A stretch of 64,000 nt of DNA from contig JBBIGR010000008.1 in the NCBI GenBank assembly GCA_037447435.1, positions 88,619 through 152,618 on the forward strand, in the 5' to 3' direction. This stretch comes from Fibrobacteria bacterium (GTDB lineage: Bacteria > Fibrobacterota > Chitinivibrionia > Chitinivibrionales > FEN-1185). The position numbers and the translations under genes were made by a program. Below, piece after piece: positions 46,832-54,274 of this stretch. The stretch's first letter is position 1; the number at the start of each line of letters is the position of its first letter. The notes below the pieces were generated by a model, which made no database searches, was not told the origin of the DNA, and worked only from the letters and a program-made list of their open reading frames with translations.

Positions 46832-47389
46832 TTATGCCGACATGGTATTATCGGTCAATGCCTGCAGCATGGCCAGCGAATTTGAGCTGCTGCTTGCGCT
46901 TGAACCGGTGTCCGTCGACGGTGTCGTCATCAACGCCTGCAACATCGAAAAATTACTGTCGAAACTGCTGCCGTTGCTGTCGGAATTTCCCAACGCATCC
47001 ATAAGCGGATCGCCGGAGGAGGAACTATCGGTCGCGTTTAACATTTGTAAAAAAGGATCGTTGCTGCTCGAATTTGTCGTGCCGTTTAGGGCCTGCATAA
47101 ACGGGTCGGTGGAATCCGTATTGTCGGTATTATCTATCGACTGAAGAAACGGATCGTTTGCATCGGCATTGCCGAACATGCTTTGAAGATTCTGAAGCAT
47201 GCCGAGATTGCTGACGCTGCTCGTTCCTTGCTCCGCATCGGTAGGCTGCGTTGTTTGCAACAAGTTTGAGAACAAGTCGGTGTTGTCCGAAGATGAGTCG
47301 GCTTGGGAGGAATTGCTCGCATTCAAAGAGTCGAGCAGGCTTTGCCATTGCGCTTGCAGGGAATTACTGGTGACTTGTGAGACGTCCAT
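46832..47389 (-). CDS. Acidic Ser/Asp/Asn-rich low-complexity protein with DPF(L/M)QxL repeats
   Basis: 185-aa ORF with AAAGGGG RBS and repeats NDPFLQSI, TDPFMQAL, NDPFLQML, GDPLMDAL. Confidence 0.65.
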   Translation of the reverse strand: MDVSQVTSNSLQAQWQSLLDSLNASNSSQADSSSDNTDLFSNLLQTTQPTDAEQGTSSVSNLGMLQNLQSMFGNADANDPFLQSIDNTDNTDSTDPFMQALNGTTNSSSNDPFLQMLNATDSSSSGDPLMDALGNSDSNGSSFDSNFSMLQALMTTPSTDTGSSASSSSNSLAMLQALTDNTMSA

Positions 47390-48453: not shown

Positions 48454-48519
48454 GATGCAGGGCCCTATTAATCAATTCAAATGCATGATTACAGTGACAA
48501 TTGCAGCTTTTTCTCATTT

Positions 48520-48591
48520 CCCTCACCCCTGGCCCCTCTCCCATTAATGGGAGAGGGGAAAAGGGGAATGGGGGTTAAGGAGTGAGGGTTA
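48520..48591. repeat. REP-like palindromic element, copy 2
   Basis: Same CCCTCACCCC...CCCTCTCCCATTAATGGGAGAGGGG...GTGAGGGTTA unit as 41096-41165, between convergent genes. Confidence 0.85.
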
Positions 48592-48626
48592 AAGATAGCT
48601 TTTACTTATGAACCGCTTTGTAATTC

Positions 48627-49421
48627 TTATCCTGCTTTGACCGCTTCGTTATTTGTCGTGACCGCTGTCGGATTCGATTCGGAGGATGCTTTTCCGTTAC
48701 TGTCTTTTGCCCGCGTTCTGCGCCTATGCGCCAAAGCCATGACATCCGAAATGGCGACATTGAGTTCCGATACGAGATTGGCAAAGGCAGCGGGATCTTT
48801 TTGCGCTTGACCATCTATATAATTAAATAGTTGGTTAATGTGATAGCCTACTTCATTGCATTCGGTTTTGGTGTCGGACACCGACACTGTTTTTCCTTCG
48901 GCCGTTACTTTCGTCTGATACGCCGTTTCGTAGGCCGTTTGTGCGTTTGTCAATGCCGTCACCAGGTCCGAGATCTGCAGCAGGTTGATGTAGGACTGCG
49001 CATCGGGATTTTTAAAACTTTCCAGTATCCTCATGATCGCGCCGGTTTTTTTCGTGTTACCTATTCTATCTATCCGGTTTCCCGGCAATTTAATTTTTTC
49101 CATTAAATAATCGGCTGCGGTTTTGATATCGGGCCGCATCGTAATGCCGCATGAACCGTCTATACAACTATAAAGGCTGCAAAACGCCTCATTACGCGCC
49201 TCATCTTTTGCGGTAAGATCATCCGTAAACAAAGCAGTCTTTTTGGCCTGGACCGTAGCTTCGAGGCTTAAAGAAGAATTCATAATATCCTGCAATTTGC
49301 CCGTCACATACGGGTCTTTTGGGCCATTACGGGAAACAATTTCGCAAAACCTTCCCGCGCAGGCGATGAATTCATCCGGCCTAAGTAAAGACGAAAAAAA
49401 GCTTTTCACATCTTTGTTCAT
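48627..49421 (-). CDS. Alpha-helical protein, DUF6261/HagB-like
   Basis: AGGAGG RBS. T..L...DE.RN.AF..L motif, AA..L, and helical LV..L..A...YE pattern. Family assignment is from recall only. Confidence 0.6.
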   Translation of the reverse strand: MNKDVKSFFSSLLRPDEFIACAGRFCEIVSRNGPKDPYVTGKLQDIMNSSLSLEATVQAKKTALFTDDLTAKDEARNEAFCSLYSCIDGSCGITMRPDIKTAADYLMEKIKLPGNRIDRIGNTKKTGAIMRILESFKNPDAQSYINLLQISDLVTALTNAQTAYETAYQTKVTAEGKTVSVSDTKTECNEVGYHINQLFNYIDGQAQKDPAAFANLVSELNVAISDVMALAHRRRTRAKDSNGKASSESNPTAVTTNNEAVKAG

Positions 49422-49571
49422 ACACCCCTCCTATTAGTTAAATAAAGACCCATGGCGGGAAACAGTTATCCGATAATCCGGACTCACCTGTTCGTTAAGA
49501 CGCCACGGCTATTTATATGGAATAGTATTTAAAAAAGATGCATATCTTATGGAGCAATTGTCGTTCCAGTT

Positions 49572-49900
49572 TTAAATTGTACGAAAATTGCATCCCCCAA
49601 AAATTTCGGGGCAAATTTTGCGCGAAAAACGGCTCCGCATTATTGTTATCGGGAAAATTCGTACGAAAAAACGTAAAACAATTTTTGCAAATGAGAATAT
49701 CGCACGATTTTGCGAGAAAAAATTCCTGGGATCGATAAAATTACGGCGAAAAATGCAAAACCATTCTTGGGGATAAGAAAAATCGCGCATAAAACGCTAT
49801 AACAAATTTTGTTTATGGATTTTTGCTGCGTTTTTGGGCTTCCCATTTTTTGTTATGCGTTATATGCCGCGAAAATCGGACGCGCAAAAAATGTTTGTCT
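49572..49900. repeat. Degenerate tandem array, 8 units with 41-bp period
   Basis: Units start at 49572, 49613, 49654, 49695, 49737, 49778, 49819 and 49860. Conserved columns: T6, S8, R10, C11, G12 (7/8), W13-17, SS19-20, CA26-27 (6/8). Confidence 0.75.
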
Positions 49901-51387: not shown

Positions 51388-51651
51388 CTTCGGCGTTTCG
51401 ACAGGCTCAACGACCGAAGAGGAAATAAGACGGCACTTCGACAGGCTCAGTGACCGTTTTATTGTGTGCAAAAGGAAATGCTTTTTAACTTCGGTCACTG
51501 AGCCTGTCGAAGTGCCCGAAGTGTAGTGCCCGTTTTGTTAATGATTAACCAATTAAAGCCGGCTCAGTGAATTTCTTGAATCTTCGGTCACTGGGTTTCT
51601 CAGACTTCGGTCACTGAGCCTGTCGAAGTGCCCGAAGTGTAGTGACCGTTT
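51388..51651. repeat. Cluster of REP-like TTCGACAGGCTCA elements (two forward, two inverted, two partial)
   Basis: Forward copies 51388-51419 and 51431-51456. Inverted copies start at 51488 and 51604 and share 41 identical nt. Partials near 51561 and 51582. Confidence 0.85.
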
Positions 51652-51745
51652 TATTTTTGTAAAAAGTCCAGCAGCATGCCGGAAGTCAAAAACCAATGCT
51701 GCATTATATTTTATAACGAACTCCTATAACGAGGAATTCCTTCCG

Positions 51746-53573: not shown

Positions 53574-53885
53574 ATGAAATCGATATTGTTGGACAAAGTA
53601 AAAAATGCAGTAAAACAAATCGAACCTTCCGCGGAAATCATCCTCTATGGTTCCCGTGCGCGAGAGGATTTTCATGAAGGTTCAGACTGGGATTTTCTTA
53701 TACTTGTTGAAGGTGAGGTTGATGATAAACGCACTGATAAAATCAGACATCAGCTTTATGAAATTGAATGGGAAACCGGGGATGTTTTATGTTCAATTGT
53801 ACGAAGTCGCTTTGAATGGGAAAGCCCTGAATATCAAATAATACCTTTATACAAGAATATAAAGCATGATGGTGTCACACTATGA
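53574..53885 (+). CDS. Minimal nucleotidyltransferase (MNT), antitoxin-like
   Basis: LYGSRAR.D...SDWDFLI (GSx10DxD). Overlaps the HEPN start. Confidence 0.9.
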   Translation: MKSILLDKVKNAVKQIEPSAEIILYGSRAREDFHEGSDWDFLILVEGEVDDKRTDKIRHQLYEIEWETGDVLCSIVRSRFEWESPEYQIIPLYKNIKHDGVTL

Positions 53886-54274
53886 GGGGCACTCTAGAAG
53901 ACTTAATTAAATATAGGCTGGAAAAAGCCGCGCAGACATTGGAAGATGCCAATCTATTAGCATCTGCAAAACGATGGAATCCTTGCGTGAATCGGCTGTA
54001 CTATGCATGCTTTTATGCGGTTTCGGCCTTACTTGCTAAAAACGATTTTGGTTCAAGTAAACATACCGGAATAAGATCGCTTTTTAATCTCAATTTTGTT
54101 AAAACCGGCAAGATATCAAAAGAAACCGCTGAGATATATAATGACCTTTTTGATAGAAGACAAGAAGGGGATTATGCGGATTTTGTTATTTTTACAGAGG
54201 AACAAGTTCTTCCAAGAATTATAAAAGCAGATAATTTCATTAAAGCTATTATCTCCCTTTTGCAGCAAAAATAA
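53882..54274 (+). CDS. HEPN domain protein (MNT-HEPN pair)
   Basis: NRLYYACFY, KH.G, LFDRRQEGDY. Confidence 0.9.
   Translation: MRGTLEDLIKYRLEKAAQTLEDANLLASAKRWNPCVNRLYYACFYAVSALLAKNDFGSSKHTGIRSLFNLNFVKTGKISKETAEIYNDLFDRRQEGDYADFVIFTEEQVLPRIIKADNFIKAIISLLQQK

Follow-up and report, generated by a model that had tools for sequence, protein, structure and literature searches.

The locus considered here raises the question of whether a run of loosely similar 41-bp segments upstream of a DUF6261-like gene is a genuine array, whether it belongs with that gene, and whether it acts as DNA, acts as RNA or is a by-product of another process. It lies in a stretch of 64,000 nucleotides that was analysed as a whole (the window). 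In the labels used below, G000 is the window's genome, C denotes a contig and L a fetched locus.

The array and the gene beside it

The original prediction described eight consecutive units of about 41 bp that stay in register, with one extra base, while their exact sequence changes. These units exist as written (Table 1). They start at 49572, 49613, 49654, 49695, 49737, 49778 and 49819, and the eighth occupies 49860-49900; the single extra base is a T at 49736, between the fourth and fifth units, and a decayed ninth unit may extend to about 49940. The autocorrelation of the segment 49572-49905 has its maximum at lag 41 (identity 0.485, z 7.6), and harmonics follow at 82 and 123-124; in 400 dinucleotide shuffles, the top z over all lags was 4.2. 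The expected peak at 41 was likewise obtained when the sequence was recoded as A/T versus G/C (identity 0.761, z 7.0), and purine/pyrimidine recoding gave a z of 4.0. Adjacent units are 48% identical, which places the array at the bottom of 55 non-redundant arrays (range 0.48-0.95), and because of this low identity it was overlooked by both TRF and exact-seed repeat finding. The array is old and decayed. The longest stop-free stretch in the surrounding intergenic space is 75 codons, all frames considered. As for the TCGYRCGA-like dyad noted in several units, a perfect 10-bp palindrome is indeed found inside unit 3, whereas the dyad of the best repeating unit is at the level of its own shuffles (p 0.28).

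Table 1. Positions of the array, the DUF6261 gene and associated features in the window.
Feature	Position	Strand	Basis or remark
Array, eight 41-bp units, non-coding	49572..49900	.	colinear with two gene-less siblings
DUF6261 (HagB-like) gene, 264 aa	48627..49421	-	PF19775, E 6.7e-16
Ribosome-binding site AGGAGG	49427..49432	-	direct sequence reading
Sigma-54-like -24/-12 box TGG-N9-TGC, putative promoter	49553..49568	-	consensus match
REP-like multi-copy palindromic element	48511..48604	.	inverted repeat, 3' of stop codon

The DUF6261-like label given to the adjacent gene was confirmed by its Pfam match (59 bits, curated cut-off 27), and the atlas clusters matched by its product (0.96-0.97) carry DUF6261/HagB names. 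The protein was modelled as an all-helical rod of two stacked bundles (AlphaFold pLDDT 91, pTM 0.57), and on inspection by eye a signal peptide was not evident at its start. Foldseek and PDB-sequence searches gave no significant match, the best (VIA Z 9.7) being generic bundles, a result that does not show the modelled fold to be new. Neither did the fold and PDB-sequence searches return a known DNA-binding fold; a profile search gave no match to a helix-turn-helix (HTH) family, and KfrA was absent among the fold matches listed. The homodimer prediction scored 0.35, the mark being 0.42. The basic residues R76, K171, R234 and R237 are conserved (78-89% of 28 rows), and the core has a median net charge of 0.

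The sigma-54-like box, whose TGG-N9-TGC pattern we take to be the -24/-12 consensus, faces the DUF6261 gene and lies 3 bases off the array end. The palindromic element beyond the stop codon has copies at about 20 genomic places and is probably not specific to the cassette, by which we mean the gene together with its array. The gene is neighboured by a methyltransferase gene and an exo/endonuclease-phosphatase gene. Near a family B cassette (see below), a homolog of the latter lies about 1.1 kb away from the array, with one small gene between them (L164, G005 C1:9800-14200), and that region and the window possibly belong to a common variable island. Elsewhere in the window, a cluster of REP-like palindromic repeats of 25-52 bp, in both orientations, occupies intergenic DNA at 51392-51655; a nucleotidyltransferase and HEPN gene pair in the usual MNT-HEPN toxin-antitoxin layout lies at 53574-54274; and 46832-47389 (-) holds a 185-aa low-complexity ORF rich in Ser, Asp and Thr, whose Pfam matches are all below threshold.

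Linkage of arrays to DUF6261 genes

The window's genome contains six DUF6261 genes, four with an upstream 41-bp array, one without a clear array and one cut by a contig end. Across the phylum, matches to DUF6261 were found at 129 places in 45 of 151 genomes, with up to 10 copies per genome. Ninety-nine loci, mostly chosen by score, were fetched; three duplicated the genome's own genes and six more were dropped because their starts were identical or because they did not match the DUF6261 profile used, and the final set comprised 91 genes. Arrays were called from the best 160-base segment at lags 8-70 with an identity of at least 0.48. The best period was 41-43 in 61 of these 91 genes, in line with the expectation that DUF6261 homologs are flanked by arrays of fixed period, although the genes are kin and the array counts are not independent events. 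Among those with both flanks the figure was 53 of 70, compared with 6 of 1,600 control flanks (5/800 upstream, 1/800 downstream) drawn from 800 random long ORFs of the window's genome only; the array thus belongs with the DUF6261 gene, as had been proposed. For 17 of the 70 fully flanked genes an array was not found at the threshold used, and three flanks had periods other than 41-43. The periods were 41 (20 arrays), 42 (28) and 43 (13), which correspond to four turns at 10.25-10.75 bp and are neither a codon multiple nor a multiple of a fixed number of nucleotides.

Beyond the 91-gene set, an array was present at eight of nine named Fibrobacterota loci and in one Prevotella record; two phage-collection scaffolds fell below the threshold. 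Searches of plasmid and phage collections with a relative's protein gave one and two matches, respectively, and DUF6261 is no plasmid or phage core gene in the collections searched. Relatives were not found in metagenome and viral scans, and a word-based protein search returned two own proteins only. Several cassettes occur per genome, with unrelated neighbours beside them. The 96 ORFs that flank the genes within about 1.5 kb variously comprise housekeeping, restriction, toxin-antitoxin and transposase genes and include just four homologous pairs, and consequently a third partner gene is not indicated; ParA, Rep, reverse transcriptase and Cas were not found in this set. At L169:1600-1830, upstream of a DUF6261 gene, inspection by eye revealed TTGATT/AATCAA dyads in a decayed run that misses the array threshold and adjoins a helicase/methylase-like ORF.

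The array lies upstream of the DUF6261 gene in 54 cases and downstream in 7, never on both sides, and its distance from the start codon ranges from about 60 to 860 bases. At three Fibrobacterota loci (L175, L176 and L179) no more than about 60 bases separate the array from the start codon, which leaves scant space for a promoter. In the genus of the window, the sigma-54-like box precedes all six array-bearing DUF6261 genes, which are kin rather than independent cases, and neither of the two genes without a clear array. A sigma-54 domain protein is encoded in the window's genome, so that a putative -24/-12 promoter, recognised as a consensus match, is found together with a genomic RpoN in this genus only. 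This pattern, the predominance of upstream arrays and the retention of the box beside a gene-less array (see below) would all suit an array that serves as a landing strip for a host factor, such as a sigma-54 activator or a nucleoid protein, and thereby controls the DUF6261 promoter, the protein itself having a different job, e.g. adhesion. Still, such a role is unlikely: the box occurs in only 1 of 77 genes of other groups (169 of 2,943 control genes), the downstream arrays and the wide range of distances speak against it, and paralogs in the same genome have unrelated units that one host factor could hardly read.

Turnover of array sequence and the RNA reading

The arrays of relatives bear out the view that the spacing persists through sequence turnover, since they hold a period of 41-43 with unrelated unit sequences. 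Array sequence is common to none of 1,854 pairs below 50% protein identity, to 1 of 23 pairs at 50-70% and to 10 of 14 (71%) above 70%. Large indels between homologous arrays measured 41, 42, 43, 84, 86 and 171 bases, and one-base indels were often compensated close by; two distant homologous pairs aligned too poorly for indel reading. No end-to-end polarity of decay was seen. The window array has two gene-less siblings, C2:225397-225830 (L163) and C43:1362-1651 (L162), which are 66-71% identical to it and exceed it by one unit each; the C2 copy retains the sigma-54-like box, now opposite another ORF. Further gene-less arrays were observed at C20:7872-8370, C65:17490-18050 and C27:65100-65346, with siblings beside DUF6261 or family C genes. 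One paralog, L004 (C71:2803-3567), is a mosaic: its body is 76% identical to that of L002, while approximately its first 40 residues and its tail match L003, to which it is 55% identical and whose array it carries. Strict protein-array specificity is strained by this pairing of an L002-like body with an L003 array. A second copy of the distal flank of the window array was not found in the genome, two DUF6261 paralogs have a 110-bp distal stretch in common, and an empty insertion site was not found among 20 relatives.

Whole-unit indels and gradual decay, as seen in the half-identical units of the window array, are typical of minisatellites, and gene-less copies persist. The array might thus be the by-product of a cassette-tied process, for instance a footprint of the protein in replication or repair, that duplicates 41-43-bp pieces and leaves a functionless, hitch-hiking minisatellite. 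Minisatellites of 22, 23 and 41 nt are known in P. gingivalis and, like the present arrays, are intergenic tandem repeats that gain and lose whole units; among them, 464/PgRS (41-nt) and BrickBuilt (23-nt) are presented as MITE-type elements with terminal inverted repeats (accessible portions of PMC4596501). The names hagB and hagC have 0 occurrences in those portions, and none in the corresponding ones of PMC5771137. A by-product is nevertheless decidedly unlikely. A fixed period and a partner gene are foreign to neutral minisatellites, the register has been held over eight half-identical units with one-base indels often offset nearby, and helical-turn periods (20-21 or 41-43) cover most non-coding tandem arrays of the window's genome, 19 of 28.

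Selection on the shape of A- and T-tracts, as originally suggested, was not borne out, as no fourth-harmonic (about 10.5 bp) A/T-tract signal is common to the 55 units. A-tract curvature was likewise ruled unsupported, there being no quarter-unit A/T-tract phasing that the arrays have in common. For purines, harmonics 2 and 4 gave a signal (z 2.2 and 2.9 among 45 tests) that is a hint only. Dyads are mildly enriched, with a mean score of 5.7 versus 4.6 and 11 of 55 units at p<=0.05.

In type III toxin-antitoxin systems, a structured repeat RNA, a terminator and a toxin gene are laid out on a single transcript, and in CRISPR and TIGR guide arrays constant repeats alternate with variable spacers. 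ToxIN/AbiQ and TIGR-Tas have a short repeat array adjoining a single protein gene. The suggested processed RNA, in which some motifs would be fixed and other segments variable, was not supported on several counts. Neighbouring units are 48-95% identical over the 55 arrays, and in most relatives the units are nearly identical and lack a variable part; because the window array is the most decayed of the 55, age explains why it looks like fixed motifs with variable segments. The array strand folds no better than its shuffles (z -1.8 and -0.3) and has no match in Rfam. Whether upstream or downstream of the gene, arrays fall beyond the likely mRNA, and by eye five of the seven downstream arrays visibly follow a terminator-like hairpin. 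Between the window array and the start codon, the only terminator-like site lies on the other strand, where it overlaps the promoter box. Of seven RNA-labelled runs compared with the related locus L047, all seven contained pieces of the gene and five contained pieces of the array, counts from which nothing follows either way, the underlying data being contigs without strand or level in which repeats collapse.

In view of these results, it is very improbable that the array has a promoter of its own and gives rise to a repeat RNA which, bound to the protein, neutralises or guides it in the manner of type III toxin-antitoxin or TIGR systems. A leader location would be possible at L175, L176 and L179, and some units do fold into hairpins. 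Conversely, the arrays show neither strand bias (T exceeds A in 24 of 48) nor a variable spacer, their periods are locked to multiples of the helical turn, and some lie past a terminator. Unlike ToxIN/AbiQ and TIGR-Tas, the present cassettes gave no RNA structure signal and no match to a Nop domain or RNase. A type III toxin-antitoxin identity was rejected on the lack of a folding signal, the presence of a promoter-like box rather than a terminator between array and gene, and the seven downstream arrays. A CRISPR or TIGR guide array was rejected on whole-unit similarity of up to 0.95 with no variable segments, and on the lack of a Cas or Nop match.

A putative two-part cassette and its possible kin

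At a little short of an even chance, we favour the reading that the array and the DUF6261 gene form a two-part cassette in which the helical rod protein binds its own array as double-stranded DNA. B-DNA has about 10.5 bp per turn, and one binding unit would probably recur at every fourth helical turn, with adjacent protein units in contact along one face of the helix. Contact of this kind would put the spacing under selection and let the sequences of paralog and unit drift together. A protein lattice running along one face of double-stranded DNA would be expected to enforce just such periods, at two, four and six turns with a tolerance of one base. Because the array can occupy either flank of the gene, a linked cis site is favoured over a leader RNA or a plain activator site, and the gene itself is the only constant partner, which favours direct binding of the array by the rod protein. 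As the array abuts the sigma-54-like box in this genus, the coat would regulate its own gene too. In what is the weakest step of the proposal, the coated array may aid persistence or spread of the cassette, much as a centromere or packaging site would, and this would account for the multi-copy, patchy distribution.

Several observations count against direct binding, namely the lack of a known DNA-binding fold, the neutral charge of the core, the L004 swap, the array-less genes (17/70), the gene-less arrays and the mildness of the dyads, since a symmetric dimer would predict dyads. The family name does so as well: HagB and HagC of P. gingivalis, which belong to the same family as the window protein by atlas cluster name and Pfam, are described as a hemagglutinin/adhesin whose function is partly defined, and the accessible portions of that source mention neither an array nor DNA binding (PMC6635597).

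Direct binding by a neighbouring gene product has parallels on plasmids. The F-plasmid sopC site consists of 12 tandem 43-bp units bound by SopB, beside the SopB gene (PMC3177203, in part), and the present arrays resemble this type Ia ParABS site in having tandem units of about four turns (here 41-43 bp) next to a protein gene. Unlike sopC, in which each unit carries a conserved 16-bp inverted repeat (same portion of PMC3177203), DUF6261 arrays have weak dyads and unrelated units, and the cassettes are chromosomal and multi-copy. A type Ia ParABS identity was rejected, as no conserved inverted repeat was found (p 0.28 for the window unit; 11/55 units at p<=0.05) and no ParA or ParB family match was obtained for the DUF6261 protein, the window neighbours or the 96 flanking ORFs. 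KfrA of plasmid RA3 is mostly alpha-helical, attaches to repeats at the promoter of its own gene and assembles into filaments on cognate DNA, according to the available part of PMC7783346; the DUF6261 protein, as judged from sequence and model, is predicted to be helical too and has repeats near its own gene. KfrA differs in having an N-terminal helix-turn-helix and five 9-bp repeats (same part of PMC7783346), whereas DUF6261 is modelled as stacked bundles with no evident HTH, and its units measure 41-43 bp and sometimes lie downstream of the gene. A literature search, in a collection that lacks most subscription journals, returned no description of the DUF6261-array pairing, and the name DUF6261 was found once each in two unrelated papers. 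The unit is apparently undescribed; its mechanism is inferred.

Two of the non-coding arrays with helical-turn periods in the window's genome lie downstream of other unnamed genes. Two further families have arrays of this kind. Family B (about 250 aa; e.g. C26:64098-65383, L100/L109) occurs in 32 of 81 genomes, in up to 15 copies, and family C (about 160 aa, with a PKMGDK-like motif; e.g. C45:4993-5794, L101/L139) in 7 of 81. Thirty loci of family B and all 13 of family C were fetched, and arrays in the period classes 20-22, 41-44 and 62-66 bp were accepted. On this basis, arrays accompany 15 of 27 fully flanked family B genes (12 downstream) and 9 of 11 family C genes (8 downstream; periods 21, 42 and 63). 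Family B shows a clear internal duplication into two modules (probability 96.7), yet its arrays are mostly of 21 bp, and it matches NF052641 weakly, below the cut-off. The family B model has the same two-bundle rod and helix order as DUF6261, and the two models match the central and end bundles of identical generic structures; fold searches with the family B model returned only generic bundles. When sequence profiles were compared, DUF6261 showed no significant similarity to family B or C (probability 1.3, 0.3 and 5.2), and what hints at kinship between DUF6261 and family B is a similar helix order and common weak fold matches of the models.

A near-fixed four-turn period with free sequence, together with two further families at two, four or six turns, would point to a mode of recognition outside the families tested. 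It is possible, if rather doubtful, that DUF6261 and at least two unnamed families belong to one superfamily of rod proteins, which polymerise on private, helically phased DNA arrays with a unit of two or four turns and spread among bacterial chromosomes as minimal selfish cassettes without a transposase, polymerase or ATPase of their own. If true, this would provide a new programmable DNA-coating ruler and a new role for the 'hemagglutinin' HagB, in a multi-copy family whose sole studied members are filed as adhesins. Were binding specific, the many natural protein/array pairs would constitute an orthogonal set of DNA scaffolds.

An array of a further form was observed at C2:129849-130124 (L105), where the two halves of a 42-bp array are inverted copies of one another. 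Its sibling at C93:2594-2840 (L165) lies downstream of a gene that resembles the family-B-like paralogs of C58 and C44.
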